A stretch of DNA of 64,000 bases from Malacoraja senta (Eukaryota): contig CM075994.1 in NCBI GenBank assembly GCA_038087875.1, positions 6,016,001 to 6,080,000 of the forward strand. The letters run 5' to 3'. Position numbers and translations under genes: made by a program. Positions 315 to 63,614 of the stretch are shown here, piece after piece (position 1 is the stretch's first letter; every line of letters begins with the position of its first letter). The notes below the pieces were generated by a model. That model made no database searches. It worked only from the letters and a program-made list of their open reading frames with translations, and was not told where the DNA came from.

Positions 315-350
315 AAATACTTGAATTAAAAAAACACATTAAAGAAGCAG
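315..350 (+). CDS. 36-nt micro-exon (E)ILELKKHIKEA
   Basis: ttttctatacag|...gaagcag|gtgaga; paralogs at 7016 and 11733. Confidence 0.85.
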
Positions 351-3300: not shown

Positions 3301-6300
3301 AAGGTTTATTCCGAACAGAATCAATTGCGCAAATGCATTTACCGTAAACTTTATTTGTTTTAGAAGAGAAAGCAATCTGCGAACCAGATGGTAAGCTAAA
3401 GACTCGATGGAAATTATAAACCTAAATTTTACATTTACCATCATGAGAATGGCGTGTTCAAAGTTGCATATTGAACTATTTATTCCTCGTTGTAGGAAGT
3501 AAGATTGGGACATCTCTGAATTTCCGCCAAGTCTTTAAATTCCTCAAACATATTCGACATTAGAAACAACCGTCAACATTATTAGAACAATATTGAAGAA
3601 GATGTATTCAATAAAATTGTTAGTATATTGATTCCTGCAACGGTAAAGGTTTAATTTACGGTAAGATGCAAACATAATGAACATCATTTACAATTCAAAT
3701 CTTGGTGTAGCTCCATTTTAAGCAGTGAAACAGGCAATCCGATTCAAATCCATTCGGTCATCCTGAAACTCAGAGGTTGATCGCTCAGGATGGATTTGGC
3801 GTGCTATCAACCATTGCAAAAGAGTTCTCTTGTTGACTTGCATGTGCAGTCCGTAATGCTGCAGGCTTAAGTTACGTTAATAGAATACCATGACACGCCG
3901 ATATATCATAGGAGGAACTAAAATTGTTTATTTTTCAGCAATTAAAAAAAATATATATTGTATTACAAAATAAAGCGTTATTCATTTCCATTTATTTCCA
4001 ATACACGAACTATAATCCTAAACATTGCGTTAAACTATAAAGAAAATAATAACCAATAGAGCTCTTCTTTTCACCTGACATGTCCTCTTTACATGTAAAA
4101 TTGTTTTACATTGCTCATGAACATAATCATGTGTCCATAAACACTACATCCCCTGACCCAACTTCCTAGGTGTCTTAAAATAATGGTATTGCGCAATTGA
4201 GATAGGAGAACAAGAAAATATACGAGATACAACCATTTATATAATCCGAAATTTAGGATTGACAACTGAATATATGCGTTTACTTTTTTGGTAGCTGTAT
4301 CCTGAAATTGTGCGGCATTCCGTGAGAAGTACTTGTTTTTTTTTATGTTATGTTAACTTTCAGTGTTTCTGCATTTTTGGCGACCTCTGATACTCGCAAG
4401 TCCCTAAAATGACTGCATAATTACAGCCAATTATTTCAGCAGTTATTATGTCCAAATATTAACTTTTTCATAACATGGAGTTTGAAGAATATCCCTGCAG
4501 GATAGTGTGGTGCGCTATTTCAACAACTGTAGTATCTTTACTTATATTTAGACACGTGTATACCAATTTCATTCTTTGATTTACTGTTAGTGGGAAAAAG
4601 ACATTGCCTTTTCTGCAGTAACATTGTTTTTCCAAATCATTCGCTGCTAAACAAAATAGATAAGCTGAAATAGGTAAACATTAATATTAAACTATGAGCG
4701 TTTTTCCGAACAGAAGAATTCCTGAAGAAATCAGATGAAGGTGAGCGCAAACTGGCCACCAGTAGCAATTCATTTTTTAAACGTAAGATATGTCAACAAT
4801 GTTTAATTTTGAGAGACACGTTTGTCGCTGATTGTATGTATGGGGAATTGTGACACTTCGTTGCCCTCCATTGATATGGATTTTTCATGTTAAAATAAGG
4901 TGTTATAGATCCCTAAAAATATTATGTGTTTTTACCTTTTTGGAGTGGTAACGCACAGCATATTAACTTTAGTAAGTGCATAACATCGGTAGCTAATTGA
5001 CTGTGCAAAATATCATTTTTATATTCGGAAGGACAGCTATCTCATTCTGCTATTTATTGACATGTCAAACGGACGCTATCATGAGCACAGTAAGGAAAGT
5101 TGTCAAGAACTAAGTTTTGAACAAAAATATACTTTTTTTTCATTGGTGAATTGTGTTGTGGTGTGACATTCAAATCCAATCCCTTTTCATAGCCTTTAAT
5201 TAAAGAGAACTAAATGCGCCGAATTGCACCAAGGTGTTGAAAGCGAATTATGTTACTTTCATGTCAGCATTGTCGGTTAAAGTGAAATCAAATAGCATCC
5301 AGTAGCAGGGATAGAAAGCGTTCTTGGACAATAAGGCAATATTGGAATTGGAAGCCAATTATCTCAGCCCGAGAGGATTACTAAAATAGTTTTTCAGAAC
5401 CTTGTCCTAGGATCTTGCATTTACGCCACCACGCCGCAAAACTACCATTCATATCTGTTGGGCTGAGCATTCTTTACCACATTTCAGTTGACCATGAACT
5501 AACTCCTACCTTAAATATATGAGAATTCCACGATGCTGGTGTTTTGTTCCTGGGCAAAGCATACGGCATTCCTGGCAGCAGTGCGTGTCGGGTGCCGAAG
5601 TGGGCTATAGGACCATTCATTTCAATGTCATTGAACAAGGTGTGTTTGGAAACTCGAAACGAAATTTCAACTTAATGGCTTTAATCTAGCGCTCATTGCT
5701 TTATAACCACGTATCTTTCGCATACCTAAAACACATGCTTCCAGCTGCAATTGCGAAGATAGGTCCAACAACTCCCTACGGTTTGATAGCGAGAAATGTG
5801 CCTTCTCCCTCACGAATTTATCGAAAGCATACACCCGTTCTATGTATATGCAAATAGTTAGAAATATTGTGACTTACAGTATTCCTTGTTTCTACGTGTA
5901 TGCAAATAGTTAGAAATATTCTGTAGTTTACTAGGCTTGATGCCAATGTTTAAAAACGAACTGTCGACATTTGGCAATGAACGTTAAGCCTAGCTATGGA
6001 AGAATATACGGAGATGATCTTGAGGTTCCGCTGTTGCATTGTTTTTAATCTCCACGATATTCGTTCGGAAACATATGTCCGAATGTTTTAACGACTCAAA
6101 TTGACCGATTTTCACTGGGGAGTCGATATGAAATTATTAATGGATCATGAGAACGATATAACATAAGACGCAGAACAGTGAATCCGTCCCATGATGTTTG
6201 TCCTGCACATGATGCAAAATAATAATAATCCCTTCTGCCTGTATCCCTGTATATTCATGGGTCTATCGAAAATAACATTAGCCACCTGCCGTATATTTTT

Positions 6301-9300
6301 CCACAATCACCATTGCAATGCGTAAAAGTTTGCTCCACACATCTCCTTTCATTTCCTTCCTCAACTCAGACATATGCTCAAACATTTGACATTTCCAATC
6401 TGGGGGGAAAAGATCGTGATATTCTTCCGTATCTATGCTTTTCATAATACTGTATCCATTTCTTTGGTGACCTCTCATCGTCCGACGTTTCAGCGAAACA
6501 AGCCAAACTGTTTCAAACTCTTTATAACAAATACAAATGTAATCCAGGTTGCGTTCTGTTAAAACTCTTCTGCACCCTCTGCAAAGTTTTCACATTTTTC
6601 ATGTAATGTGGCTAGCAAAAATGCACATAATACTCTAAATAGTCAACGACCAAGGTTTTTATGCTGCTACTTTGAGGGACCTATGGATTGAGACACCAAG
6701 GCCCATGTGTACATTAATGTTGTTAAATATACTGTCACTTACTGCACAATTCTCCGTTGCATTTGCTCTCTCGGTGTGCAACAGCTCACATACTTGGATT
6801 AAACTGCATGTTCAATTTCTCCTTTAGTACCTGTTTGTGACCGGAATACTACTGCATCCCTTAACAGCCTTCTTCGCTAATTGTTATGTCGTCTGCATAC
6901 CTACAAACCAAACCGTCAATGTTTTCGTCCATGTCTCTTGTAAACACATCACAAACAACAGAAATCAGAACATTGATCGATGCAGTAAAATTGTATTTTA
7001 CATTTTTCTCTTCAGAAATACTTGAATTAAAAAAACTAATTACAGAAGCAGGTGAGAGCAGAACCTTAAAATAGCATTTGCTCTTCAATTTCAGATGCGT
7101 TGTAGTATTCCAGCTCCTGCTACTGCAGAAGATGTTGTGTTATTTCGTCCTTATGAAAGTTATCTAATCAGAAAATAACAATATGGTGATGACGTCCTTT
7201 GCTTTCCCAGTGTATCGCAACAATCTACATAGAATTCAAATTTGGTGATCATCATGTGACCGGCCCAAAATATCCCAAGGGAAACTGACAAGAGGATCGC
7301 AACGTTAAACAATTCAATTGTAATAACGTGGAAAGTTACATTGGCCTATTAGAACTCATATAAGATTAAAATTATATCAAGATTAATAAACTTAACTTGG
7401 GTTCCCTTAAGGTCCCCCATGGAGAATGGGAATTTAATACAATGTCAAAGGAATTCAAGAAATACCATGTTTTTTTTTCTCATGGCAAGATAAATAAAAC
7501 AGAGGCACTGGAGTCTTGTGGAGCCAATGCTTCTGTAGAAATGGAGCATTAAATTAAACATTACGTAAATAGAACGAAAAACTTCAATCAGCTTTAAAAT
7601 GAATAACAAATTCCACGACGGTGCACTCCGTCGCTGTATTTCGACATAGGTAGCCACACAAAAGTGAAGGCTCTAGTAAACATATTTTACACGTGTGTAG
7701 ATGTTGATATTATTCCAGTGAATTAGAAGATAACAATTATAAATGACGTATTGAAATATAACAAATCTAACCCCTTTCATTCGGAAAAAGAGTGAAATAG
7801 AAGCTCATGAAAGAAATAGAACATAAAAGGAAAATTATGGAATATCTGAAAGGATTTTCTAGTCAAGATTGTTAAAATATAATTACAATTTAGAAAAATT
7901 AAAATGGATATGCAAAAGGGAAAGGGGCTTGTCCTAATGTACGGGAACTCGTTGAGAAGACAGGTGATTCGACAACTATGGGGAAACAGTTGGATATTTT
8001 GATTTTCAATATTTCAACATAGCCCCACACAACCGGCCTTTGAATGGTTGCACGGTTTTATAGCGGTAATAGCCCAGCACGTATTTAGGCATGTCACCTA
8101 TCACAAATGAACAGCAAAAAAAATCTGGTGATGCTGATATTAATTTGAATATTTACAATTATCCACAATTTTGTTTGTTCAACCGTTCCCAATGCCTTAC
8201 TGTCACCGGAGTGCAAGGAGGAGGAGATTTAGCCCAGTAGGTACATAGCAACAGATGGTGGATGATGTGATCCAAAAGAGAAAGCAGAGACACTGGAGTC
8301 TTGGGGAGGCAACGGTTCTGTGAAAATTGAAATATGAAATAAATGTTTATTAAATCGAACGAGAAACTTTAATCGTCATGAAAATGAATAATGCATTCCA
8401 AGACGATGCACTCCTTCGCTGCGTTTCGACAGATGGCCACATCGAAAATTAAGGCTCCAGTAAACATATTTTAAACGTGTGTAGATTTTGATTATGTTCC
8501 AACGAATTGGAAGATTACAATAATGAATGGCGATTGGAAGATACCAAATATGAACAATTTCATTCGGAAAAAGAGCGATATAGAAAAGTTTATGAAACTA
8601 TTAGAACATACAATAAAAATGGTGGAATGTATGAAAGGATTTTAAATACAAAATTGTTAAAATACAATTATAATTTTGAAAAGTTATAGTGAATTTGCAA
8701 AATGGAAAATAGGTGCTCCTGATGTACGGGAGCTCGTTGTGCTCTGCAACAACAGACTGTCTTTAGGCAGGCATGATATATCGGCGAAGATAGACATTAA
8801 AAGCTGGAGTAACAGCGGGTAAAACGGCATATCTGGAGATAAAATTATAGTTGACGTTTCGGATCCAGGTGCAGAAACGTCACCTATTCCTTTTCTCCAG
8901 AGATGCTGTCTGACCCGATGAGTTACTCCAGCATTTTGTCTCTTTTTTCGGTTTAAACCAGCATGTGCAGTTCCTACACAATATTTATAGGCGGTTGCCT
9001 ATGCACAGATTATCATATTATGCCTGTATGTCGCCGAAGTCCTCATTGCTGGAGCAATTGCTGCACCGTAAATATGGAATCCATGGACCGAAGATTCTTG
9101 GACGGATGTCAATGGATCTAACACTGTGTTCGGTGTTGCACTGATCCCACTGTTGCTCACTGTGCTAAGTGACATAAAGCCGCGTCTCCCTTAAAATGGA
9201 GCAGCTGGGCCACAAGTGACAAGAACTAATGTTGAGCTCATGGTGTACCTCGACGATCAAATGTCCGTCAAAGGACGTCCACAATTTCGTAAAAGTCCAC

Positions 9301-12300
9301 TTAGCCATCAGTTCAGGCTAAAATGATTGGGTTTACAGTCAACAATGACCTGAGGTGGAGACAGATGAAACCCATAGGCTTCCAGCTGCGTTCGGCGGTT
9401 CTTCACAGCAGGGTGCAGGGCTTAGAGACTGGATTGCTGACTAATTGCAAAATGATATTTGGACCACCTAACTTTAACATTAATCATTTCATAATCAAAA
9501 TTGCAGAACGATTTACCATTATTTTCTTTGTCTACGCATTGAAATATAACAAGTCATTGATATTACGATTTCAGCAATTGTAGGAACATGAAATGAAAAG
9601 GTGTCCTACACAATGCAATTGAGAATCAGATGTGGGTAACTTGACGAATAATGCATTAAAATAAATTACTCTCATGGCTATTCTTCATTTCATACCAGAA
9701 GAATCAAAAACTGATAAAGATACAGGTACGCATATGCGCGAATCTGAATATAGAAACATAGAAACATGGAAAATAGGTGCAGGAGGCCATTCGGCCCTTC
9801 GAGCCAGCACCGCCATTCATTGTGATCATGGCTGATCGTCCCCAACCAAAAACCCGTCCCCGCCTTCTCCGCATATCCCTTCATTCCATTAGCCCCTAGA
9901 GCTCTATCTAACTCTCTCTTAAATCCATCCAGTAATTTGGCCTCCACTGCCCTCTGTATTTTCTGCAGTAACATCGTTCTTTCCAAGCATTCGCTGCAAA
10001 ACAAAATAGTTCAGCTGAAATTAGTAAACATCAATATGATATAATGACGCATTTTTGAAACAGATAAATTGCTGAAGCAAAAAGACAATGGTAAGTGCAT
10101 AACCTTATTTTACTTGCCACCAGCAGCAGTTCTTTTATTTAACCATAAGCTATCTCAACAATATTTAGTTTTTAGATATCCATTTCATGCTGATTTTATG
10201 GGGAATGGTAACAATTTGTTGTCCTCCATTGTTATGGATTTTGCATGCTAAAATAAGTTGTTACATTTCCTTCAAAACATGATGTGTTTACAACTTTGTG
10301 TTATGGCAACGCATAGCATATTCACGTTAGTAAGTGAATGAAATTGGTAGCTACTTGACAGTGCAAAATAATATTTTTATATTCGGAAGGAAAGCAATCC
10401 AATTCTGCTATTTATTGGCATGTCAAACTATCGTCATCATGAGCAAAGTAAGGAAAGGTGGCATGAACAAGGTTTTGGGGAAAAATATCAACTTTTCATT
10501 TGCAAAATATGTTGCGGTGTGAACAGTCAATTCCAATCCCTCTTCATAGCCTTTAATCAAAGAAAACTCACTGTGCCGCATTGCACTAAGGTGTTGAAAG
10601 TGAATGATATTCATTTATTATCAGCATTGTCCGGAGTGCGATAGCACGGATCTCCGGTTAAAGTGAAATCAAACGGCATCCAGTTGCAAGGACAGAAAGG
10701 GATCTTGCACAAATAATTACAGTACACGATTTCCCGTTGCTAGATGAATGCAAACAGTTGCATATTTTGTAACTTACAGAATTATTTGCTTTTAAACTCC
10801 ACGTTACTCGGTCAGAAAATATTGTCCGAAGGTTTTACCGATTCAAATTCCCCGATTTGCACTGGTAAGTCGAGATAACAGTATTAACGTATCCTGAAAA
10901 CAATACAATTTAGGACTATCAAAAATAGCCTTCATGGTACCTACCGAAACTTCTTCCACCAGCACCATTGGAACGTGTTCCAAGCAGTAACTATCATCTG
11001 TGTAAACGTTTCCTCCGCACATCTCATTTCCTTTCCTTCCGCTCCTCAAATATATGCTCAAACACTTGATATTTCCAATCTTGGGGGAAATTATGATGAC
11101 ATTCTTCCATGCCTATGCCATTCATCATACTGTATTCGTCTATATGGTCATCGCTCAACCTCCGACGATGCGGCGGAACAATCCAACATTTTCCAGCCTC
11201 TGTATACCCAATACAAATGCAATCCAGAGATCGCGGTCTGCTGAAACTCTTCTGCATCTTCACAAAGTTTCACTTTATTCATGTAATGTGGCGAACAAAA
11301 CTGCACACAATACTCTAAATAGTCCCGACCAAAGGTACAATGCCGCTACTTTGAGGGAACTATGGACTTAGATTCCGAGACCCCTATGTGCATTAATGTA
11401 AACGATTTTGTCACTTATTGCACACTCCTGCGTTACATTTGCCCTCTCAAAGTGCAACAGCTCACACACTAGGACTAAACTACTTATTCAATGCCTCCTC
11501 TAATGCCTGTTTCTGACCTATATATTACTGCATCCCTTGACAGCCTTCTTCACTCTCCACACCTCCACCCAATTGGTGTGTCGTCTGCATACCTACAAAC
11601 CAAACCTTCGATGTTTTCGTCCAAGTCTGTTGCATACACATTACAAACAACAGAAATCTGAACATTTCCCGATACAAAACTCCACTGTCCACAGCTAACA
11701 ATACAAATTTATATTTTACATTTTCTGTACAGAAATACTTGAATTAAAAAAACTCATTAAAGAAGCAGGTGAGAGTTGAACCTTCAAATAGCATTTTCTC
11801 GTCAATTGCAGCTGCGTTGTAGCATTCTAGCTTCTGCTACTGGTGAAGACATTGTGTTATTTCGTCCTTATGAAAGATGTCTGATGAGGAAAGAAAAATA
11901 TGTATATGATGATGACGTTAAGGAACATTTGACCGGCCCAAAATATCCCAAAGAAAACTGACAAGTGTATCGCATCTTTGATCAATTCCCTTATAATTAA
12001 CGTGGAAAGTTACGTTTGGCGTTTTGGAGCTCCTATGAGAACAAAATTAGGCCAAGATTGGTCAACTTAACTTGGGTTCCCTATGGGGAATGGGTGGTTA
12101 TAAAATGTCAACGGAATTCAAAATGTGGCATGCGTTTTTCTTCACGCACAAGATAAAACAGAGAGATTGGAGTCTTGGAGAGCCAAGGGTTTTGTGAAAA
12201 TGGGGAAATAAAGTAAATATTACGTAAATAGAAGGAAAAACGTAAATCGACATGGAAATGAATTAATGATTCAAAGATTTGATGTTCCATCGCTGTATTT

Positions 12301-28299: not shown

Positions 28300-28367
<68 letters not shown>

Positions 28368-43300: not shown

Positions 43301-44168
43301 GTACTTGAGTCAGGTGCCGCCGCAACATTTAAGAAACACGTAGACAGTTACATGGATAGGATAGGTTTAGAGGGATGTGGGCCAAAAGCAAACAGGTGGG
43401 ATGAGTGTAGCTAGGACACGTTCGGTGAGGGCAGTTTAGGACGAACGGCCTGTTTCCACGCTGTACGAATCTATGACTCTCAGACATTCATATTCACATG
43501 CCACGCATGTTGGGCGGCTAATCATTTAAGCAGTTTTGGGAACGTATTATGTTTGAAATGGTCTTTGTATATTAAAATCTTAAGTGACAGCCACAGATCC
43601 GTCACTTAAGTTTGTTAGTTTGTTTATGAATATCTTTTACTTTATTTGTAGACATGTATACGACTGGTGAGTACAACAGCTTTCTTTAATAATTTTCCTG
43701 GGAACCAAATTTATCCCGTCAGCTGTGAACTTGCGTTTCCCCAACACGTGGTACAATTTCAGTAATCGACTAATAGTCGGAATAAAATTGTCATCGGTAT
43801 CGAGAGCCAGAAATGTTATTATGTTTCATAATAGACAATAGACAATAGAGAATAGATGCAGGAGTAGGCCATTCTAATTCTCTCTTGAAAGCATCCATAG
43901 AATCGACCTCCACTGCCTTCTGAGGCAGAGAATTCCACAGATTCACAACTCTCTAGGTGAAAAAGGATTTCCTCAACTCCGTTCTAAATGGCGTACCCCT
44001 TATTCTTAAACGGTGTCCCTTGGTTCTGGATCCACCAAACATCGGGAACATGTTTCCTACCTCTAGCGTGAACAATCCCTGAATTATTTAATTATTTAAT
44101 CAATTATCTATCTATCTATCTATCTCTCGATCTATTGATCTATGTATATATGTATGTATGTATGTATG

Positions 44169-44218
<50 letters not shown>

Positions 44219-53200: not shown

Positions 53201-56200
53201 ATTAATTCACTCAACAATTAAACCGCCAAGACGCCTAACGCGTTCTTGTTGATATACTGTTTAGGAAAGAACTGCAGATGCTAGTTTAAATCGAAGGTGG
53301 ACACAAAATGCTGTAGTAATTCAGCGGTACAGGCAGCATCTCTGGAGAGAAGGACTGGGTGACGGTTCGTCTGACCCGAAACATCGCCCATTCCTTCTCA
53401 CCAGAGATGCTGCCTGTCCCACTGAGTTACTCCAGCATTTTGTGTCCACCTTGTTTTTATACTCGCTTCTCTATATCTACCAGGATTCTCTACGTAAATC
53501 AACCGTTCCTTTTTGTTTTGGCTGTGTTGGCATTAAAAGGGAAAAACAAGTTTAATGGCAGCAAATTATGACGTTGTGTTTACTAATTGCTTAAATCTAT
53601 TCTATGAGGTGGACAATGGGGATAGGAGGGAAAGATTGATCAGCCATGATTGAATGACGGAGTAGACAGGATGGGCCGAGTGGCCTAATCGTTCCTGTCA
53701 CAAGACCTTATGACCCTATTTCCGTGTTACCAGCTGAGAAGTTGCAGAAGAAAGAAGCAGGTAAGCTATAATTAGATCGCGTCAAAGCCATTGTTTATCA
53801 CTAGACTTTGGTAGAATTTTCTGCATGTTAAGTGCTTTCAATATTCATTTTCCAACAATAATTATAACTTAATGATCATTAGAAATGCTGAAACATCTGG
53901 AAAAAGATAGTAAGTAAAACTAACCAGTTGGTTATATTGAGAAATATACTTAAAAGTGCCTGTCAACCTAATCTAGGTAAAGAGGTAAAGAGGAGTAATC
54001 GGGTTATGGAACTTTGCAGAGTTAATTGAAAAAAAGTACAAGATCTACTAAAAGGGCGCCTCGCCAAGGTTAATGTTTACGACCCATGGTTATTGCTCAC
54101 CAGGTTTGTTTTTGACACTGAAGAATCAAAATTGCTTGAAAATCGCGATTTGAAAAGCAGCCCATGCAGTCGGAAGGGTGACCAGAACCCTCATTCCGCA
54201 TCAATTCCAACTTTATAATTCAAGCGGCCGGCAAGTAGTGGGGGAGATGCAGGGATGCATTTGTAGTCGGGCAGGCTACACCTGAAGAAGGATCCCCGAA
54301 ATGTGTCCCCAATTGTGCATGCTCTCCATGGATGCCGCCTGACTCATTGAGTTCCTCTGGCATTTTGTGTCCTTCTATGAAGTGTCTTCATGTTCTCCGC
54401 TCTGTGCACATGAAGGAAATATTGCTTAATATGACAGTCAATTTGACATACGGCAGTCAGGACAAGACAAATTGTGAATCCGTTGGCTTCCCTAGGACTA
54501 TTTGATGTATTTACATGCGAATGTCAGAAGTCATGGAATATCATAATCAGCATAAGAGACTGTTCCTAACATTATACTCTATTAATTTTCAACATCTTGC
54601 TTCATTTTATTATTAAAAACTGCTGTTTCTTGACCATTGTGATTTGTCTAAACCGTGCTATTTTCTGTTTATCGTTTCAATTTTATATTTTGTCACATAA
54701 TATTCAGAAACACGTTTCAAAGAATCAAATTCTGGTTAGTGCATTCGTCTATTTTATTTACGATCTTATAATTAAGTTTCTCCCCCAACAACTCCAGTAA
54801 CAAAATTCCGGATCTTGCAGTGAAGGACTCCAGATTCAATATATTGTTCGCTACTGTCTATGGCAATTCTTTCGCAATTTAGCAAATCAAATATTGCGTA
54901 AATGTGCGCGCACTTTTGCATTTGCACTCGCACGTAAGGAGTGGAAACGTTTTTTTCTTAATTATGCATAGCAAGAGGGATTTTTAAAGAAATCATCCTC
55001 TCGTAATGCTCTGGGACACAAAGCTGAAGAAATTATTAACGGTCATGGTGATGGTATATCATGCTTTGTTACTTTTGGGGTGTGGTATTTCTCGTGTAAC
55101 AAAGTGAGAACTGAGATATAATTGCAAAATACTTTTGATCTTGGCTGCTATTGGCGTCTTTTTGAGTGTCTGTGTTCAGACGACAGGGAGATCTGAGACG
55201 AAATTACTTTTTAATTTCAGAATGTGAAAAATTGGTAGTAATTCGCACGGACGTCGGTAAGGAGTGAAACATGTTTACTCGGGGAAAATACACGTGGAAT
55301 TTTATTAATTGTGCAAAACTCAAAACGAAATAAAGGATTTCATGCTGTTCTCCAACGATGTGCTTCATTTAGGAATACAAAAAAAACACTAAATGCTTCT
55401 GTGTACTGTCTATGTAACCTCTGCAAATAGCTACGCGTGAGAGTAACAGAGAAGCGACTAATATATATAATGAAGGTAGACATAAATGGTGAGTCAACAT
55501 CTATGGACGAAGGAATAGGCAACGTTTTGGGTCGAGACCCTTCTGTCGCCTATTCCTTCGCTCCATAGATGCTGCCTCACCCGCTGAGTTTCTTCAGCAT
55601 TTTTATCTACCTTCGATTTTTCCAGCATCTGCAGTACTTTCTTAAATATAAATAATGATGCACTTTAGAATGTAACACTGTCGCGATATCTAGGCGGAGA
55701 CATCTATACAAGGCTACAAAACGTCAGCCAGTCCTTCTGTCCAGAGTTGCTGCTTGTCCCGCTGAGTTACTCCAGCATTTTGTGCCTATTCCCTCATGGT
55801 AGCTTAGCTGAAATGATACAAAGACTCAGCGCGTAGTATGTGAAACCAGTATTATCCAGGATCAGAGTTAACTCTTTCAAATTTCAATATCAAAGGAAGC
55901 CGAGGGGTGACTATTTTGCACGAAGTATGGTGGGTCTATTCAACGAGCTGCCGGAGGAGGTACTTGGGTCAGGTACCGCCGCAACATTTAAGAAACACAT
56001 AGACAGTAACATGGATAGGATAGGTTTAATGGGATGAGGGCCAAAAGCAAACAGGTGGGCTGAGTGTAGATAGGACACGTTCGGTGAGGGCAGTTTAGGA
56101 CGAAGGCCCTGTTTCCACGCTGCACGAATCTATGGCTCTCAAACATTCATCTTCAACTTCTAAGCATTTTGGGCGGCTGGTCATTTAAACTGTCTTGGGA

Positions 56201-59200
56201 ACAGCTTATGTTTGAAATGTTACAGCCACTGGATATGGCCAGTTTGTTTATGAATATATTTTAATTTGTTTGTAGACCTATGTACGACTGGTGAGTACAA
56301 AGGCTTTCTTTAATAATTTGCCTGGGAACCAAATTTATTCCGTCAGCTGTGAACTTGCATTTCCCACAACACGTAGTCGGAATAAAATTGTCATCAGTAT
56401 CGAATGCATATCGAGAGTCAGAAATGTTACTATGTTTAGAGTAGACAATAGACAAGAGAGAATAGGTGCAGGAGTAGGCCATTTAGCCCTTCGAGCCAGC
56501 ACCGCCATTCACTGTGATCATGGCTGATCACTCACATTCAGAACCCCGTTCCTGCCTTCTATCAATTGACTTATCCAGCGAGTCCGCTATCTTTAAGAGC
56601 TCTATCCAACTCTCTCTTGAAAGCATTCAGAGAATAGACCTCTACTGCCTTCTGAGGCGGAGAATTCCACAGATTCACAACTCTTTGGGTGACAGCGGTT
56701 TTGCTGATCTCCGTTCTAAGTGGCCTACCACTTATTCTTAAACTGTGTCCCCTGGTTCTGGATTCCCCCAACATCGGGAGCATGTCTGCTGCCCCTAGCG
56801 TGTCCAATCGCTTAATAATCTTACATGTTTCCAATAAGATCCACTCTCATCCTCCTAAATTCCAATGTATACAAGCCGAATCGCTCTATTCTCTCAGCAT
56901 ATGACAGTCCCACTATCCCGGGAATTAACCCCGTGAAACTACGCTGCACTCCCTCAAAAGCAAGAATATCTTTCATCAAATTTGGAGACCAAAACTGCAC
57001 ACAATACTCCGGGTGTGGTCTCACCAGGGCCCTGTACAACTGCAGAAGGACCTCTTTGCTCCGATAATGAACTCCTCTTCTTATGAAGGCCAATATGCCA
57101 TTAGCTTTCTTCACTGCCTGCTGAACCTGCATGCTTACTTTCAATGACTGGTGTACAAGGACACCCAGATCTTGTTATAACTTCCCCTTATCCTAACTTG
57201 ACATCATTCAGAACTTCTTCTTCTTCTTGCATATGGCGTGCAGAGCCTAATGTTTAGGACAACTTGTTCTATTTGATCCTATTTGATTGTGCACATCAGG
57301 TTGATTGCATTCGTTGAAACAAGGCGGACCACGTGAAGGTTCAATCTCCCACCCCATATTTCAGATAATAATCTACCTATGACAGTCTGATTAGATCACC
57401 GTGTGCATCTTATGTTTGGATACGTAAAAAGTATAACCTGAAATTAGACTATCAGCCTCATTGATTGAATCAGAATATTCAACAAGATCAGATTAGACAC
57501 CCAGGGAATGGATGACATCAACGTCAGTCTGTTAGAATAAATAACCTCAGAATTTAAAACTAGTTGCATTTAATTATTATCTGTTCTTGTCTGAATTCAA
57601 AAACAAATACAACCGTGTATTTCACGTGGCGAGAGTGAAATATGGGACCTTAAAGGCAGCTTAATGAGTGCTCCGCATATGGATTACATTTGAAATTTGG
57701 AAACGTTGTCTTGATTCATACTTTTGTGAAACGACAGAAATAATGTTAAAAGTATCCTTAATAACAAGAATGTCATTGCCCTCATAATTTGAGGAAGGAC
57801 ATAGATACATAGAAATTAGGTGCAGGAGTAGGCCATTCGGCCCTTCGAGCCTGCACCGCCATTCAATACGATCATGGCTGAGGGAGTGCAGCGTGGGTTC
57901 ACCAGGTTAATTCCAGGGATGGCGGGACTGTCATAGGATGAAAGAATGGATCCACTGGGCTTGTATTCAGCAGAATTTGGAAGGATGAGAGGGGATCTTA
58001 TAGAATCTTATAGATAAAATTATTAAGGGGCTGGATCCAGGAAAAAATGGTCCCGATGTTGGTGGAGTCCAGAAACACGGGTCACAGTTTAAGAATAAAG
58101 GGTAGGTCATTTAGGACTGAGATGAGGGAAAACCTTTTCACCCAGAGAGTTGTAAATCTGTGGAAATGTCTGCCATAGAACGCAATGGAGGCAAATTCAC
58201 TGGATGTATTCAAGAGCGAGTTAGATATAGCTTTTAGGGCTAGCGGAATCAAGGGTTATGGGGCGAAAGCAGGAACGGGATACTGATTCTGGTTGATCGG
58301 CCATGATCATATTGAATGGCGGTGCTAGCTCTAAGGCAGCCCCGGCATATCCTCTCTCTCTCTCCTTCCCCTACCCGTCGCAGCAGCTTCTCGTTCTCAC
58401 CCAACAAACAGCTAACAATGGCCTGTTTCCTTTATCAGCGTTACATTATTTTGCATATCGTTAATTCGTTGTTCTTTATCTCTCCACTTCATTGTCTATA
58501 GCTCTCGTTTCCCTTATCATTAACCAGTCAGAAAAAGGGTCTCGACCCGAAACGTCACCCATTCCTTCTCTCCAGAAATGCTGCCTGTTCCGCTGAGTTA
58601 CTCCAGGTTTTTTTTAAAATCTAACTTCGGTTTAAACCAGCATCTGCAGTTCCCTCCTACAAATTACTTCCAATGCCTTCCGTTATTTCATGACACGATT
58701 TAGTGATTTTGTTTCCGTTGCATGGAAAATGAAGGAAAAGGCCAGAGTATCTACAATAATTTGCCTTGCACTCAGTAATCCTTAACAGATAAAGGATTAC
58801 CGTTATAAACGTGTATCTTGTTCACTAAATGATCTTTAATTCCCTAATAGTCTGAATTTAATGCAGGTGGATTTATCAAATTGACGATGCATTTTGGTCA
58901 AATGGACTCGACTGTGTAACGTTTGGCATGGTGTCTGATTATACCCTAACTTTTGCTGATTTGCAATATACAAAATTCAACTGGTGTTTGTGACTGTTTG
59001 TTTCTGGGCTCAGGCGTCCTATGTATTTTAATTGTATTAATGTGCTTCCTTTAAAAAAAAAGAAACAAACAAACTCAAGGCAGAACTGGGGGAAGCAGGT
59101 ACGCATGCTTTCACGGATTTGACCATAATGGGCGACACGGTGGCACAGCCGTAGAGTTGCTGCCTGACAGCGCCAGAGATCCTGACGACGGGTTCTGTCT

Positions 59201-61857
59201 GTGCGGAGTTTGCACGTTCTGCGCGTGGGATTTCTGCGGGTTCTCCAGTTTCCCACCGCACTCAAAACACGTGCAAAATTTAGGTTACTTGGATTTGGTT
59301 TAAAAAAATTTAATTGTCCCTTGTGTACAGGCCTGTTTCCACGTTGCGCTTCTAAACTAAACAAATCAATGCCGCTTGCATATGCTTTATCCCAATACAA
59401 AATTAATGCCACACTCATAGGTGGAGAATGGCTTGCAGATGGAATGGCGCTTACATTTATTTAGCATTTACGATCAAAGGGCGCTGTTTCTTTTCGAGCT
59501 GCATTTCTATTTTATTTATGGCATAACATTCTTGGGAGGGAAAATAACAGATAAGAAGGATTGGTGTTGACACTGAAAGTACTTATTTTATTACTGTACC
59601 AACGGGACTCACTGCGGCAATATGTACTGAAAGAAAACAACACTGTATATTCGTACATTCTCTCCTAAGAAGTAGTGGTACTTTCCGTGAGTTTCTCCAG
59701 CACTTTTGTCCACCAAAATTATTCTGCCTGGTCGATTAAACCTCCAAGACGCCTAACACGTTCTTGTTTTTATACTGTTTAGGAAAGAACTGCAGACGCT
59801 GGTTTAAATCGAATGTAGACACAAAATGCTGGAGTAACTCAGTGAGACAGGAAGCAACTCTGGAGAGAAGGAATGGGTGACGTTTCGTCTGATCAGTCTG
59901 AAGCAGGCTCTCGACCCGAAACGTCATCCATTCCTTCTCTCCAGAGATGCTCCCTGACCTACTGAGTTACTCCAGCATTTTGTGTCTACCTTGTTTTTAT
60001 ACTCCTCGCTGCCCTATATCTCCCAGGATTCTCTGCGTAAAGCAACAACTCCTCTTTGCTTTGGCTATGTTGGCATTAAAACGGAAAACAAGTTAGTGTC
60101 AGCAGATTATGACGATGTTTTTGTTTAAATCTATCCTATTCTATGGGGTGGAGAATGGGGTTAGGAGGCAGAGTTAGATCAGCCATGAATGAATGACGGA
60201 GTAGACTTGACGGGCCGAATGGTCTAATCCTGCTTCTGTAACATGACCTTATGACCTTCTTTCCGTTATTCTAGCTGAGAAGTTGCAGAAGAAAGAAGCT
60301 GGTAAGCTAGAATTAGATCGAGTCAAACTATTCTTCATCATTAGATTTTGGTAAACTTTTCTGCATGTTAAGCATTTTCAATATCCTTTTTCCAACAATA
60401 ATTATAACTTAATGATCAATAGAAATGCTGAAACATCTGGAAAACGATGGTGAGTAAATGTAACCAGTTCGTCATACTGAGAAAGAAAACAAATGTTAAA
60501 GTTCCTGTCAACATAATCTAGGTAAAGAGGAGGAATCGGGTTATGAAACTTTGCAGTTATTTTTAAAATGTACAAGATCTATTCAAAGGGCGCCTCACCA
60601 AGATTAATATTTACGGTCCATGGTTATTTCCCACCAGGTTTGTTTTTGACACTGAAGAATCAAGGTTACTCGAAAACCGTGATTTGAAAAGCAGCCCATG
60701 CAGTCGGACATGGTGTCCAGCACGCTCATTCAGCAGCAATCCCAACATTATAATTCAAGCCGCCGGCAAGGGAGGGGGGTGCCTTTGTTGACTGGCAGGC
60801 TACAACTGAGTCTGAAGAAGAATCCCCTGAAACGTGTCCCCAACTATGCATGCTTCCCATGGATGCCGCCTGACCATTGAGTTCCTCTGGTAGTGTGTAT
60901 CTTTCTATAAAGTGTCTTCATGTGTTCCGCTCTGTGCACAAGAAGGAAATACTGCTTAGCATGAAAGTCAATTTGACATATGACAGTCACGACAAAGGCA
61001 CGTCAAATTGTAAACCCGTTGGTTTCCCTGGGACTACTTGATTTATTTACAAGCGAACGTCAGAAGTCCTGGAATATCATAATTAACATAAGAGACAGTT
61101 CCTAACATTATAGTATGTTACTTTTTAACATTTCGCTTCATTTGATTACTAAAAACCGCAGGTTCATGATTATTGTGATTTGGCTAAACTTCGTGTAATT
61201 TTCTGTTGATCGTTTCAATTTTTATATCTTGTCACATAATATTCAGAAGCACGTTTTAAAGAATCAAAGTCTGGTTAGTACATTCCTCTTTTTTTACGCT
61301 CCCCCCACCAAATCCAGTAACACAATTTCGGATCTTGCAGTGAAGGACTCCTGATTCAAAATATTTATTTCGCTACTGTCTACTCCAGGGCAATTGTTTC
61401 GCAATTTAGCAAAGTAAATATTGCGTACATGCGCGCACACATACATATGTACTCGCACATTGAAGTAATTAAGGAGTGAAAACGTGCATTTAAATTATGA
61501 ATAGCAAGAGGGAAGTTTTTTTTAAGAAATCATTGCCATTGTCCCTCTTAGTTTTACTATATGTTGTCACTTGCACAGGGACATTTATTAAACTTCGTCT
61601 TGTAATGTTCTGGGAAACATTGCTGACGAATTTATTAACGGTCACTGGTAATGGTCTATCATGCTTTGTTACTTAAGGGGTGTGGGATTTCTCGTGTAAC
61701 AAAGTGAAAACTGAGAGATAATTGCAAAATACCTTTGATCTGCGCTGCTGATGGCGTCTATTTGATGCAACTGTGTTCAGACGACAGGGAGATCTGAGAC
61801 GAAATTACTTTTTAATTTCAGAATTAGAGAAATTTGTAGTAATTCGCACGGACGTCG
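315..61857 (+). CDS. Internal part of a multi-exon host gene built from ~29 phase-1 micro-exons encoding a coiled-coil-like E/K/L-rich region (5' end outside window)
   Basis: AG...GT-bounded segments of 27/36/15/54 nt, all multiples of 3 and phase 1-1. Joined translation has no stops: EILELKKHIKEA-EEKAICEPD-EEFLKKSDE-EILELKKLITEA-DKLLKQKDN-EILELKKLIKEA-EERAICKID-EKLLKEKEK-ELNEVSQKLKLK-VDQLEHIDK-DLKKHLHLD-EEKLRELKS-EHATLQTIRQDL-DFSQFCKKR-ELLLRTANK-ENEKLRRDV-GSAILKKLYGDTGDTGDT-DMYTT-ERNKLKAELEET-AEKLQKKEA-EMLKHLEKD-KTRFKESNS-ECEKLVVIRTDV-DLCTT-ETNKLKAELGEA-AEKLQKKEA-EMLKHLEND-EARFKESKS-ELEKFVVIRTDV. Confidence 0.85.
370..1160 (+). mobile_element. GC-rich non-autonomous retroposon (SINE-like) with an atgacaa...aataaa tail
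   Basis: Absent at the paralogous site (~11787); shares motifs such as tttgccttccatcacagtg with the minus-strand copy at 21343-22003. Confidence 0.7.
1661..1754 (+). mobile_element. CR1 LINE extreme 3' end
   Basis: gatcagccatgatcatattgaatggcggtgcaggctcgaagggccgaatggcc...(ttctatgt)n; absent from the paralog at ~12240. Confidence 0.8.
2337..2600 (+). mobile_element. tRNA-derived SINE (paralog 13086-13350)
   Basis: ggcacggtggcacagtggtagagttgctgcc head, central cggagtttgtac...ttcctccgg core, CR1-like 3' end. Confidence 0.75.
3364..3390 (+). CDS. 27-nt micro-exon EEKAICEPD
   Basis: tttgttttag|...cagatg|gtaagc; paralog at 14101. Confidence 0.85.
4714..4740 (+). CDS. 27-nt micro-exon EEFLKKSDE
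   Basis: tttttccgaacag|...gatgaag|gtgagc. Confidence 0.85.
6170..6960 (-). mobile_element. Highly degenerate CR1 RT/3' fragment (paralogs ~10900-11660 and 1-260)
   Basis: Minus ORF fragment ...DENIDGLVCRYADD. Confidence 0.6.
7016..7051 (+). CDS. 36-nt micro-exon EILELKKLITEA
   Basis: tttttctcttcag|...gaagcag|gtgaga. Confidence 0.85.
7500..8740 (+). repeat. Internal direct duplication within unit 2 (~7500-7955 vs ~8285-8740)
   Basis: Repeated cactggagtcttg...aaggctc(t/c)agtaaacatatttt...tttcattcggaaaaagag...gtacggga. Confidence 0.8.
9750..9955 (-). mobile_element. CR1 3' end fragment
   Basis: (atagaaac)n tail followed by ataggtgcaggaggccattcggcccttcgagcc. Confidence 0.8.
10064..10090 (+). 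CDS. 27-nt micro-exon DKLLKQKDN
   Basis: tttttgaaacag|...gacaatg|gtaagt. Confidence 0.85.
11733..11768 (+). CDS. 36-nt micro-exon EILELKKLIKEA
   Basis: ttttctgtacag|...gaagcag|gtgaga. Confidence 0.85.
12681..12958. repeat. Penelope-terminus-derived insertion containing four tandem 61-bp units, flanked by a 15-bp direct repeat
   Basis: (cacaaaaatgctggagaaactcagcgggtgcagcagcatctatggagcgaaggaaataggt)x4; gtttagtgtagtgtt at 12666-12680 and 12959-12973. Confidence 0.85.
14101..14127 (+). CDS. 27-nt micro-exon EERAICKID
   Basis: tttgttttag|...tagatg|gtaagc. Confidence 0.85.
14740..17803 (-). mobile_element. CR1 LINE, 5'-truncated, frameshifted ORF2 (APE endonuclease plus RT)
   Basis: YMNARSIRNK, GDFN, SDHN, KSPGPDG, YLDFQKAF, GVPQGSVLGP motifs; (acaatag)n tail. 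Confidence 0.95.
18341..18367 (+). CDS. 27-nt micro-exon EKLLKEKEK
   Basis: tttttccgaacag|...gaaaaag|gtgagt. Confidence 0.85.
19242..19277 (+). CDS. 36-nt micro-exon ELNEVSQKLKLK
   Basis: ttaattttcag|...ttgaaag|gtaagg. Confidence 0.8.
20503..20745 (+). mobile_element. tRNA-derived SINE
   Basis: cggcacagtagcgcaacagtagaattgctgcc head; gcctgtttccacgctctatttctaaa tail. Confidence 0.7.
21040..22030 (-). mobile_element. SINE interrupted by a nested GC-rich retroposon (21343-22003)
   Basis: (tttag)n tail and SINE body to ~21338, resuming at ~22010; the insert begins with a tttattgtcac tail. Confidence 0.7.
22170..22196 (+). CDS. 27-nt micro-exon VDQLEHIDK
   Basis: ttttcatttcacag|...gacaaag|gtaact. 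Confidence 0.8.
22354..22380 (+). CDS. 27-nt micro-exon DLKKHLHLD
   Basis: tctttcataacag|...ctcgatg|gtgagt; resembles EMLKHLEKD at 53883. Confidence 0.8.
22390..23050 (+). mobile_element. Degenerate CR1 fragments (ORF1 esterase-like region and RT 3' piece)
   Basis: ctgaggaactggtgcaggga...ttttggacat...ggacatggtgtcgtagacag resembles CR1 ORF1/ORF2 remnants. Confidence 0.45.
23140..23166 (+). CDS. 27-nt micro-exon EEKLRELKS
   Basis: tttgacattacag|...aaatcag|gtaaaa. Confidence 0.8.
23452..25168 (+). mobile_element. CR1 LINE, 5'-truncated, RT domain
   Basis: ORF 23940-24911 with YLDFQKAFDKVPH, GVPQGSVLGP, KFADDTKL; (tctatgta)n tail. Confidence 0.95.
25805..26225 (+). mobile_element. CR1 3' fragment
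   Basis: ctggaatttagaaggatgag...gagagttgtgaatctgtgg...gaatggcctattcctgcacc. Confidence 0.85.
26667..26702 (+). CDS. 36-nt micro-exon EHATLQTIRQDL
   Basis: tgttcgtag|...gaccttg|gtaaga; resembles ECEKLVVIRTDV at 55221. Confidence 0.8.
27563..27667. repeat. 36-bp minisatellite, ~3 copies
   Basis: gcactcagcgccacctctccactaagcggaaatgac. Confidence 0.9.
27809..27925. repeat. 19-bp minisatellite, 4 copies plus a degenerate copy
   Basis: tttggcaaggcaactttaa. Confidence 0.9.
28301..28366. repeat. (TA)n microsatellite
   Basis: Direct observation. Confidence 0.98.
28921..28947 (+). CDS. 27-nt micro-exon DFSQFCKKR (weak donor)
   Basis: ccttccaaag|...aaaagag|gtgtat; Cys at position 6 as in EEKAICEPD and EERAICKID. 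Confidence 0.55.
29090..29555 (+). mobile_element. Rex/Babar-like LINE 3' fragment
   Basis: gacccctctcac...cttccctctggaaggcgactccgc (LPSGRRLR); aataaa followed by an (attc)n tail. Confidence 0.65.
30035..30061 (+). CDS. 27-nt micro-exon ELLLRTANK
   Basis: Long pyrimidine tract, ...ctgtaag|...aataaag|gtgatg. Confidence 0.65.
30960..31225 (-). mobile_element. tRNA-derived SINE
   Basis: ggaaacaagccgttcggtccaccga...aggatcgaacccgggtctctgg. Confidence 0.7.
31552..31578 (+). CDS. 27-nt micro-exon ENEKLRRDV
   Basis: tttttcctgcattggacag|...gatgtcg|gtgagc. Confidence 0.8.
32553..34660 (-). mobile_element. CR1 LINE, degenerate ORF2
   Basis: ORFs with QHGFMKGKSCLTN, SGVPQG, LVRPHLE; (catggaaa)n tail. 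Confidence 0.9.
34720..34967 (-). mobile_element. tRNA-derived SINE
   Basis: caggctcttcggcccaccgagtcc...aggatcgaacccgggtc...ccgctgcgccacc. Confidence 0.75.
35026..35067 (+). CDS. Possible 42-nt phase-1 exon DYFALWNLDRMAFI (not counted in the 29)
   Basis: Strong acceptor tttgtttcatttgcag and donor a|gtaaat, frame-preserving; composition and size are atypical for the array. Confidence 0.25.
   Translation, partial: TISLYGTWIGWRS
35448..35501 (+). CDS. 54-nt exon GSAILKKLYGDTGDTGDT (36 nt plus two extra 9-nt repeats)
   Basis: ttttcccttgcacgtag|...gatactg|gtgagt; (GGCGATACT)x3. Confidence 0.75.
35560..36285 (-). mobile_element. Old degenerate CR1 3' fragment
   Basis: cccaccaccct...gaccaaaactaaacataacactccaagtg...ttgatgaaggccaac. 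Confidence 0.55.
36817..37704 (+). CDS. L1 ORF1p (coiled coil, RRM, CTD)
   Basis: DLEGRQRRQNLRIVGVKEG, RAHR, PRQIIVK, ISIYRDYP, LLYPATLRVT. Confidence 0.9.
   Translation: MSIKNIQTQLKTFEGKLNFKEELKEELNSFKVDFKAEMLSTVQDILEIWKRSRDDEVKDQMEEVEGRIALVESILKGEIDPILQTPKQHIIAITELEKCVATSAETVNRLLTENQRLSEMVAKLSGKCIDLEGRQRRQNLRIVGVKEGSERDMGTRDFVADLLQKSLKLDQKPVLGRAHRAQGRRTRDDAYPRQIIVKVQLDHEFDEIMKKIARTRDLSFEGVRISIYRDYPVEVFKKRALFTETKRILKNIANLRYGLLYPATLRVTYMSKEQFFTDLKKAVEFAKGIGNVTTD
38718..42532 (+). pseudogene. L1 ORF2p (APE endonuclease, RT, CCHC), disrupted
   Basis: SWNVKG, FLQETH, GGDFN, SDHAP, SLDAEKAFD, RQGCPLSP, YADD, CDKC; in-frame stops at ~40185, 41123, 41501, 42146 and a frameshift at ~40362. Confidence 0.93.
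43652..43666 (+). CDS. 15-nt micro-exon DMYTT
   Basis: ctttatttgtag|acatgtatacgactg|gtgagt; paralog at 56276 keeps both splice sites. Confidence 0.7.
44107..44272. repeat. (TCTA)n/(ATGT)n microsatellite
   Basis: Direct observation. Confidence 0.95.
44107..45140 (+). mobile_element. Non-autonomous Helitron-like element
   Basis: 5' TC start within (TCTA)n, 3' hairpin gggaccc-aac-gggtccc (45113-45129) then CTAG|T; no TSD; empty site ca|tg at ~56825. Confidence 0.75.
45781..48070 (-). mobile_element. Internally deleted CR1 split by an LTR element
   Basis: (acaatag)n tail at 45781; KFADDTKLGG ORF 47745-48137; sequence continuous across TSD tcatc. Confidence 0.85.
45865..47541 (-). mobile_element. 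Internally deleted Gypsy LTR retrotransposon (integrase only), ~180-bp LTRs, 5-bp TSD
   Basis: LTRs 45865-46047 and ~47361-47541; TSD tcatc at 45860-64 and 47542-46; PBS 47332-47360; PPT 46048-46058; integrase motifs CSTC, VVVDSYS, TRSGRVVKPPVRY. Confidence 0.93.
48282..48690 (+). mobile_element. CR1 3' fragment (paralog 57790-58330)
   Basis: ggtcacagtttaagaataaaggg...catcagccatgatcatattgaatggc. Confidence 0.8.
48850..49560 (+). mobile_element. Rex1/Babar LINE 3' fragment
   Basis: INGERVDRVSSCRFLGTHIS, LLPSGKRYRSIKSHTTRL; aatgacaataaa(tta)n tail; absent from unit 2. Confidence 0.85.
49906..49941 (+). CDS. 36-nt micro-exon ERNKLKAELEET
   Basis: cttcctttaaaaaaaag|...gaaacag|gtacgc; paralog at 59063. 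Confidence 0.7.
49975..50255 (+). mobile_element. tRNA-derived SINE (paralog 59131-59360)
   Basis: cacggtggcacagcggtagagttgctgccttacagcgccagaga head. Confidence 0.8.
50636..53216 (+). mobile_element. Degenerate Gypsy LTR retrotransposon (RNase H plus integrase, 3' LTR ~53008-53216) with nested Penelope-end and CR1-tail pieces
   Basis: TCDASQYGLGA, YAQIEKELL, ETDHQPL, SDNG, PQSNGPAER, TRAGRVCRPPLRYKDFV; aaggaaaga PPT then TG...CA; absent at paralog ~59735. Confidence 0.88.
53260..53452. mobile_element. Short palindromic Penelope-end-derived repeat (other copies ~2730, 3020, 8790, 13470, 13760, 25330, 26950, 55474, 58525, 59778, 63465)
   Basis: acacaaaatgctg...tctggagagaagga paired with tccttctc...ccagcattttgtgt inverted arms. 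Confidence 0.75.
53734..53760 (+). CDS. 27-nt micro-exon AEKLQKKEA
   Basis: tttccgtgttaccag|...gaagcag|gtaagc. Confidence 0.85.
53883..53909 (+). CDS. 27-nt micro-exon EMLKHLEKD
   Basis: tcattag|...aaagata|gtaagt. Confidence 0.8.
54708..54734 (+). CDS. 27-nt micro-exon KTRFKESNS
   Basis: taatattcag|...aattctg|gttagt. Confidence 0.8.
55221..55256 (+). CDS. 36-nt micro-exon ECEKLVVIRTDV
   Basis: tttttaatttcag|...gacgtcg|gtaagg. Confidence 0.85.
56276..56290 (+). CDS. 15-nt micro-exon DLCTT
   Basis: tttgtttgtag|acctatgtacgactg|gtgagt. Confidence 0.7.
56440..57380 (-). mobile_element. CR1 3' fragment
   Basis: ORFs 56571-57144 with LVRPHPEYCVQFWSP. Confidence 0.88.
59063..59098 (+). CDS. 36-nt micro-exon ETNKLKAELGEA
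   Basis: cttcctttaaaaaaaaag|...gaagcag|gtacgc. Confidence 0.7.
60275..60301 (+). CDS. 27-nt micro-exon AEKLQKKEA
   Basis: ttccgttattctag|...gaagctg|gtaagc. Confidence 0.85.
60423..60449 (+). CDS. 27-nt micro-exon EMLKHLEND
   Basis: tcaatag|...aacgatg|gtgagt. Confidence 0.8.
61247..61273 (+). CDS. 27-nt micro-exon EARFKESKS
   Basis: taatattcag|...aagtctg|gttagt. Confidence 0.8.
61822..61857 (+). CDS. 36-nt micro-exon ELEKFVVIRTDV
   Basis: tttttaatttcag|...gacgtcg|gtaagg. Confidence 0.85.
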
Positions 61858-63315: not shown

Positions 63316-63614
63316 CTTTTATAACTGATCAATTCTGCTCTCCTCTCTGATGTTCTTGCTGTCTAAGCCGAAAGGTGTGACGCTTGAGCTAGTTTCTCTG
63401 CTGCAACGCTGCTTTAACTCTTCCTCTACGATGGGCACAGATAATTCACTGGTGATTCGGACGGATCTGCAGATGCTGGTTTACACGGGAAATATACACA
63501 CAATGCTGGATTAACTCAGCGGGGCAGGCAGCATCTCTGTAGAAAAGGAATGGGTGGCGTTTCAGATCGAGATCCTTCTTCAGAGTGAAGAAGGGTCTCG
63601 ACCCTGAAACGTCA

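Follow-up and report, generated by a model that had tools for sequence, protein, structure and literature searches.

Tropoelastin and triadin are encoded by small exons whose lengths are multiples of three, which split codons uniformly and are spliced in a cassette-like manner; the lumenal region of triadin is of the KEKE type. In the stalk of CD23, each 21-aa repeat is encoded by its own 63-nt exon. ORF scans systematically overlook genes made almost wholly of exons no longer than 30 nt, and spliced aligners and gene predictors often do so too. CD23 has a heptad stalk (PMC6791321). Tails of chicken BG molecules are encoded by many tiny split-codon exons for heptads, which are 21 or 24 nt in length, number 13-36 per gene, and vary in number between paralogs (PMC4046983). 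A full-text literature search found no comparable 27/36-nt micro-exon coiled-coil gene, and one may exist in print.

We analysed a stretch of 64,000 nucleotides (the window), C18:6016001-6080000 on the + strand of a 1.94-Gb assembly. Its DNA was of ordinary vertebrate type, rich in SINE, LINE and LTR elements, and the Pfam matches among 108 open frames of the window were to reverse transcriptase, endonuclease, RNase H and integrase only. A cryptic gene of symmetric micro-exons had been proposed to run through this DNA, and with guidance from a paralogous locus we rebuilt the claimed set exactly: 29 AG..GT-bounded segments on the + strand between 315 and 61857, comprising 17 segments of 27 nt, 9 of 36 nt, 2 of 15 nt and 1 of 54 nt, with a sum of 867 nt (Table 1). 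As had been claimed, phase 1-1 held for all 29, and the join was free of stops over 288 codons and rich in E (18.4%), K (18.1%) and L (14.9%). Every intron separates the first base of a codon from the other two, usually in a codon for Glu or Asp. With G as the last base of the exons and AA, AT or AG as the first two, the junction codons are mostly GAA, GAT and GAG. Since the exons are symmetric, any exon or cassette can be duplicated, lost or skipped in frame, and in permitting cassette-like splicing the small exons here resemble those of tropoelastin and triadin. Five further exons of like kind were located upstream of the window (C18:6006850, 6008410, 6010780, 6012360 and 6014730). The array therefore contains 34 exons or more, with about 1020 coding nt, and extends over at least C18:6006850-6077857 (> 70 kb); its introns, of 0.1-8 kb, are full of transposons.

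Table 1. Recognised micro-exons, in window coordinates, and the four collinear loci, in C18 coordinates (PWM, splice-site weight matrix; a, acceptor; d, donor)
Feature	Position	Strand	Splice sites and comparison
36-nt exon class A (ILELKKHIKEA)	315..350	+	AG/GT, PWM a6.6 d6.9
27-nt exon class B (EKAICEPD), Cys/Pro linker	3364..3390	+	Locus 2 class B copies at C18:5523062 and 5509992: 27 nt, AG/GT, open frame
27-nt exon class C (EFLKKSDE)	4714..4740	+	Locus 2 class C copies at ~5528608 (27 nt), 5516656 (24 nt, in-frame 3-nt loss) and 5507016 (27 nt)
36-nt exon class A (ILELKKLITEA)	7016..7051	+	PWM a9.8 d6.9; class A alignment
27-nt exon in B position (ESKTDKDT)	9699..9725	+	PWM a6.2 d4.0; flanks unalignable to other B exons; weakest among cassette exons
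27-nt exon class C (KLLKQKDN)	10064..10090	+	Class C comparison
36-nt exon class A (ILELKKLIKEA)	11733..11768	+	Class A alignment
27-nt exon class B (ERAICKID)	14101..14127	+	93.5% copy of exon 3364, flanks included
27-nt exon class C (KLLKEKEK)	18341..18367	+	Donor score 8.4
36-nt exon (LNEVSQKLKLK)	19242..19277	+	Collinear matches in loci 2, 3 and 4; 3/3 copies read are 36 nt, gap-free, AG/GT, open frame
27-nt exon m1 (DQLEHIDK)	22170..22196	+	4/4 paralog copies: AG/GT, 27 nt, open frame
27-nt exon m2 (LKKHLHLD)	22354..22380	+	4/4 paralog copies intact
27-nt exon m3 (EKLRELKS)	23140..23166	+	4/4 paralogs intact: EKLRELKA x3, EILREWKA x1
36-nt exon (HATLQTIRQDL)	26667..26702	+	Acceptor a-2.3; locus 4 HQTLQIIRQDL at 3880384, equal length, AG/GT
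27-nt exon (LLLRTANK)	30035..30061	+	Locus 4 KLLRARDK at 3880988, equal length, AG/GT
27-nt exon (NEKLRRDV)	31552..31578	+	Locus 4 NEDLRKNS at 3882579
54-nt exon, with GDTGDTGDT	35448..35501	+	36-nt collinear locus 4 exon (VEELKKKLSEV) at 3885059
15-nt exon (MYTT)	43652..43666	+	PWM a6.8 d6.6; copy at 56276; locus 4 copy at 3888409
36-nt exon (RNKLKAELEET)	49906..49941	+	A-run acceptor a-4.0; copy at 59063; locus 4 counterpart at 3890955 (IKKLKDDLEEK), AG/GT and 36 nt kept
27-nt exon t1 (EKLQKKEA)	53734..53760	+	3/3 paralog copies intact
27-nt exon (MLKHLEKD)	53883..53909	+	Acceptor a-2.7; locus 4 IAEHLKND at 3894726
27-nt exon t2 (TRFKESNS)	54708..54734	+	3/3 paralog copies intact
36-nt exon t3 (CEKLVVIRTDV)	55221..55256	+	3/3 paralog copies intact
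15-nt exon (LCTT)	56276..56290	+	Copy of 43652; locus 4 copy
36-nt exon (TNKLKAELGEA)	59063..59098	+	Copy of 49906; acceptor a-4.0; locus 4 counterpart as for 49906
27-nt exon t1' (EKLQKKEA)	60275..60301	+	t1 paralog comparison
27-nt exon (MLKHLEND)	60423..60449	+	Acceptor a-2.7; locus 4 counterpart
27-nt exon t2' (ARFKESKS)	61247..61273	+	t2 paralog comparison
36-nt exon t3' (LEKFVVIRTDV)	61822..61857	+	Last recognised exon; t3 paralog comparison
Locus 1	C18 6.007-6.078 Mb	+	Exons collinear
Locus 2	C18 5.526-5.425 Mb	-	Exons collinear
Locus 3	C18 4.930-4.830 Mb	-	Exons collinear
Locus 4	C18 3.815-3.903 Mb	+	Exons collinear; internal duplication

Segments bounded by AG and GT and stop-free in phase 1 were numerous on both strands. 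Those of 27 nt numbered 163 (+) and 138 (-), and those of 36 nt 126 (+) and 128 (-), giving 289 raw segments on the + strand and 266 on the - strand, with a mean of 225 in 60 first-order Markov simulations. With hundreds of raw segments on both strands, the bare criterion of AG..GT ends and an open frame is therefore uninformative. Splice sites were scored with a weight matrix of general consensus frequencies, not a trained one. By this measure 22 of the 27/36-nt segments on the + strand passed versus 1 on the - strand, the simulations giving a mean of 1.08 (max 4; n=60). The remaining two + phases yielded 9 and 8 passes, which were mostly the identical AG/GT pairs open in a second frame. Segments with E+K+L of at least 50% numbered 32 (+) and 10 (-), and 7.6 in the simulations (max 14). 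In the minus-strand and simulation control the strands were thus alike by raw count, and the + strand stood out once splice signals were added. When the sequence read was extended to the window plus 100 kb per side (264 kb), good 27/36-nt candidates numbered 32 on the + strand and 1 on the - strand, clustered at C18:6.006-6.086 Mb. Weak acceptors were those of exons 26667, 49906, 53883, 59063 and 60423 (Table 1). Segments 41723-41749 and 38701-38745 were rejected as exons, as both lie within a LINE. An 87-nt AG..GT open segment with three copies upstream was also rejected, being inside the LTR of a retrotransposon; it is open in phase 1 with a strong donor, and was treated as spurious, with exonisation a possibility.

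Genome searches using exon-plus-flank queries produced matches on contig C18 only, in four collinear sets (Table 1). The other three loci carry the same exons in the same order, and their introns are alignable at ~65-80% identity. Seven exon families (19242, m1, m2, m3, t1, t2 and t3) retained AG, GT, exact length and an open frame in 24 of 24 paralog copies. Copies of A (3), B (2) and C (3) in loci 2 and 3 were likewise kept, barring one C exon that had lost 3 nt in frame (24 rather than 27 nt). All 8 aligned copies of class A, 3 of them in loci 2 and 3, had their length, splice sites and frame unchanged. Locus 4 confirmed seven more exons: it had intact counterparts of 26667, 30035, 31552, 43652/56276, 49906/59063 and 53883/60423, and a 36-nt counterpart of 35448. 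It also had two extra candidate exons past t3 (3902477 and 3903072) without a locus 1 counterpart. By comparison, 12.5% of 10159 intronic 27-nt windows were gap-free and stop-free with the four flanking bases kept. Gap columns amounted to 0/864 in exons versus 7.1% in alignable intron, and all changes of exon length were in frame (24 vs 27 nt, and 54 vs 36 nt). The latter change involved a 9-nt tandem repeat, GGCGATACT, present in three copies at window 35474-35500 within the 54-nt exon, the extra 18 nt being two more copies of the repeat.

Nucleotide identity between paralogs was 78.6% for exons and 79.2% for alignable introns. The dN/dS ratio was below 1 in 18 of the 19 defined pairs, mostly 0.25-0.85, with only 26-29 codons in each pair and the pairs not independent; the exceptions were one pair at 1.25 and one undefined pair (dS 0). 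Constraint is visible solely in frame, length, splice sites and dN/dS. In our reading, frame and splice sites are clearly selected, and amino-acid constraint is no more than moderate and mainly at hydrophobic positions. A kept frame with moderate amino-acid constraint is the pattern of rapidly evolving helical repeat proteins. The comparison across paralogs is the strongest support for real exons. The segments act as genuine micro-exons of a cryptic multi-exon gene, maintained by selection, and to that extent the sequence-only reading was supported.

The 5' part of the array is composed of three exon classes: A (36 nt, ILELKKxIxEA), B (27 nt, E[KR]AIC.., with Cys present and often Pro) and C (27 nt, xLLKxKDx). 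The unit repeated upstream of the window is C+A, 63 nt or 21 residues in three heptads, which occurs as 3 x 3.93 kb at 98% identity. The basic 27+36-nt cassette reads 'DKLLKQKDE-EILELKKQIEEA-E' (21 aa). Inside the window the unit is A+B+C, 90 nt or 30 residues; these units measure ~4.7-10.7 kb and share 70-95% identity, and a cassette of ~10.7 kb is duplicated (x2) at 91-95% identity. Further exons, of 36/27/27/27/36/15 nt, make up the middle (19242 to 43652) and the 3' part. A 3' unit of roughly 56 aa, consisting of 49906 or 59063, t1, the 53883-type exon, t2, t3 and the 15-nt exon, occurs twice, the copies being spaced 6.5-9 kb apart and 82-90% identical. These repeats show that the array grows by tandem duplication of exon cassettes. 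The basic cassette is the 27+36-nt pair encoding three heptads, which an optional 27-nt Cys/Pro linker exon extends to the 30-aa unit; the further 27/36/15-nt exons form the second unit of roughly 56 aa, duplicated in turn. Cassette duplicates at 98%, ~93% and ~85% identity offer snapshots of the growth of a micro-exon array, as do the in-frame microsatellite expansion within an exon and the solo LTRs at cassette boundaries.

A full-length young LTR retrotransposon, which has many ~95% identical copies genome-wide, lies at C18:6001301-6006698, immediately upstream of the first exon cassette. Solo LTRs are found at C18:6010163-6010628 and 6014112-6014578, each at the head of one of the next two 3.93-kb cassette repeats. 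Since an LTR stands at the head of the cassette repeats, the cassette may have multiplied with the LTRs, or by recombination between them. A 158-nt repeat family is also present in the window, at 2978-3135, 13717-13874, 25270-25427, 53217-53374, 59735-59892 and 63412-63569. Both class B exons and both t1 exons have a copy ~390-540 nt before them; the copies at 25270 and 63412 have no recognised exon downstream. The repeat common to class B and t1 exons hints at their descent from one ancestral cassette.

The joined peptide consists mostly of stretches such as KLLKQKDEEILELKKQIEEAE, EKLRELKSE and NKLKAELEETAEKLQKKEAE, separated by polar or Cys/Pro-containing breaks (EKAICEPD, ESKTDKDT, GDTGDTGDT and D[ML][YC]TT). 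Valine and alanine contribute 3.1% and 5.6%; with G at 1.7% and P at 0.3%, the product does not resemble elastin or collagen. Hydrophobic periodicity at 3.5 residues was not significant over the whole chain (z 0.4 vs shuffles), and 37% of 28-residue windows exceeded the 95th percentile of the shuffles. Of the long coiled-coil-like tail that had been envisaged, local heptad-like stretches were supported and one continuous coiled coil was not. As the periodicity is local only and interrupted by polar breaks, the predicted product is better called a segmented, highly charged helical rod. It would be a charged helical protein in which short amphipathic, heptad-like segments alternate with polar breaks, and it may serve as a segmented rod or a module for oligomerisation, with the number of cassettes setting its length.

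We consider it probable, from what the DNA holds, that these are real coding micro-exons of one + strand gene with at least 34 exons, a member of a four-gene family on C18. More tentatively, and as a possibility that we rate well below this, the family may be lineage-specific and fast-evolving, with an entire ORF of at least 34 symmetric micro-exons. Its members would be free-standing 'zipper' proteins without a receptor head, whose length changes through gain and loss of two- to six-exon cassettes, with the LTRs between cassettes as recombination substrates; such an exon 'accordion' would be independent of the BG tails of birds. The case for a micro-exon gene was made here from DNA alone, through four diverged paralogs that keep exon length, frame and splice sites. 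If transcription holds, the locus would be a second, independent vertebrate instance of a helical rod encoded in symmetric heptad-block micro-exons, after the chicken BG tails. It is also a useful locus on which to test the annotation of cartilaginous-fish genomes with micro-exon-aware methods.

The ends of the gene were sought in the flanks. Scans on both sides revealed no first exon, start codon, last exon or stop codon. On the 5' side, C18:5999001-6001320 contained no ATG-to-donor first-exon candidate, and a 186-nt block that this region has in common with paralog 2 had no exon features. On the 3' side, neither an E/K/L-type exon nor a convincing terminal exon was found in the 28 kb past 61857. 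Genome searches with sequence upstream of the array returned almost solely transposon copies, and those with sequence downstream of the window were swamped by transposons. When transposons are excluded, the homology between loci 1 and 2 ends ~2 kb upstream of the first (class C) exon, so that either the gene starts near the array or the loci could be duplicated gene fragments. The 20 kb upstream of paralog 2 consists of satellite and transposon sequence. Directly upstream of locus 2, a tandem satellite (C18:5536001-5546000, - strand) has long open frames with a ~24-residue repeat (FHFHCHCSFKHRAGQAKQL..), and these frames had no Pfam match. A 412-aa open frame upstream of paralog 2 was rejected as a part of the gene, being satellite repeat. 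One RRM_1 match (E 4.7e-8) was obtained in an open frame at C18:6115015-6115434 (+). This frame, 37 kb past the last micro-exon, probably belongs to a neighbouring gene as one of its exons and would mark the 3' bound of the micro-exon gene.

The sequence-only reading had further suggested that the array could be the tail of a BG/butyrophilin-like receptor; on that view it would encode the cytoplasmic part of a transmembrane protein whose Ig-V and TM exons lie upstream, perhaps with B30.2 downstream. The two systems are alike in design, both having symmetric micro-exons that each encode a block of heptad helix and vary in number between paralogs, and all 29 exons here split codons at their junctions; for BG genes, tiny split-codon heptad exons in varying number are on record (PMC4046983). 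BG tail exons measure 21 or 24 nt (PMC4046983), and the exons here are chiefly of 27 and 36 nt, those of 15 and 54 nt being few. The heptad register here is broken by Cys/Pro linker exons, and the defining parts of such a receptor were not found. The Ig-V pattern C..W..[DE]xGxYxC had 0 matches in six frames of C18:5916001-6180000 (264 kb), and Pfam scans of 404 ORFs (94, 108, 71 and 131; stop-to-stop, minimum length 60-95 aa, chiefly + strand) from C18:5946001-6180000 and from the 20 kb preceding paralog 2 gave no Ig, V-set, SPRY/B30.2 or lectin match. These scans returned transposon domains, the one RRM exon and a few sub-threshold matches. An upstream Ig-V exon was found neither by the pattern nor by Pfam within 100 kb, and no Ig or V-set domain was detected in + frames of at least 65-70 aa across C18:5946001-6110000 and the 20 kb upstream of paralog 2. 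Downstream, SPRY/PRY was absent from + frames of at least 70 aa as far as C18:6110000 and of at least 95 aa as far as 6180000. Hydrophobic TM-like stretches were low-complexity or transposon-borne only, in a scan that could miss a short TM exon. With no Ig or B30.2 exon found within ~100 kb on either side, the receptor tail is a highly improbable explanation. The 27+36-nt cassette of 21 residues also recalls the CD23-type stalk of 21-residue units. Unlike CD23 and other type II C-type lectin receptors, the locus had no lectin motif (CYxF, WIGL, WxDG and EPN/QPD..WND; 0 matches in six frames of 264 kb), no Lectin_C match within 100 kb downstream, and no TM exon was found. It also differs from triadin in its L/I-rich heptad pattern, and no membrane anchor was found. 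What stood of the original interpretation was the cryptic E/K/L-rich micro-exon gene; the BG/butyrophilin receptor was not supported.

Another explanation is that the array is the central rod of a known, conserved vertebrate coiled-coil gene of the golgin, centrosomal, cytoskeletal or synaptonemal type, with its terminal exons outside the sequence read. The composition and motifs are generic for coiled-coil proteins, and the missing gene ends in the scanned flanks would fit such a rod, but four tandemly arranged paralogs with alignable introns on one contig point to a family that is expanding and specific to its lineage, not to a conserved gene in single copy. Among + frames with a minimum length of 65-95 aa, in a region reaching from ~70 kb upstream to 100 kb downstream, only transposon Pfam domains were present, and the homology between loci stops near the first exon. 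We regard this explanation as unlikely. The loci might instead be a non-functional relic, made up either of the decaying exons that a dead gene has left or of chance AG..GT segments that segmental duplication has multiplied. The equal identity of exons and introns and the missing gene ends would agree with that, and recent duplicates inflate the exon count, so that their intactness says little. Against decay, all 24 copies remained intact across loci that are 20-35% diverged, versus the 12.5% expected per intron window; exon indels are in-frame only, and dN/dS is mostly below 1. The matches are also not dispersed as those of a transposon would be, being confined to the four collinear C18 loci. 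A relic is accordingly given very little credence, and the coding micro-exon family remains the reading that we prefer.

Two sequencing runs contained 0.80 and 0.71 of the words of the stretch. Their contigs cross exons and introns alike, and are therefore genomic DNA. They agree with the assembly with 0 differences, for example at window 21973-23479 and 34916-35598, and DNA contigs of the two runs gave the 54-nt exon with 0 differences. Transposon frames lie inside the introns at window 38649-42145 (+), 15243-17525 (-), 23853-24908 (+) and 50893-52250 (+); they represent LINE endonuclease and reverse transcriptase, and LTR-retrotransposon RNase H and integrase fragments. One LINE lies between the 54-nt exon and the 15-nt exon. 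A GC-rich insertion occupies window 378-1158, in the intron directly 3' of exon 315-350, and the conserved intron flank picks up again past it at ~1159. Further upstream on C18, a 30.6-kb direct duplication was observed at 99.65% identity (C18:5916001-5946617 vs 5965354-5995979). Its end coincides with a 200-N assembly gap, and it reflects either segmental duplication of very recent date or an artefact of the assembly.
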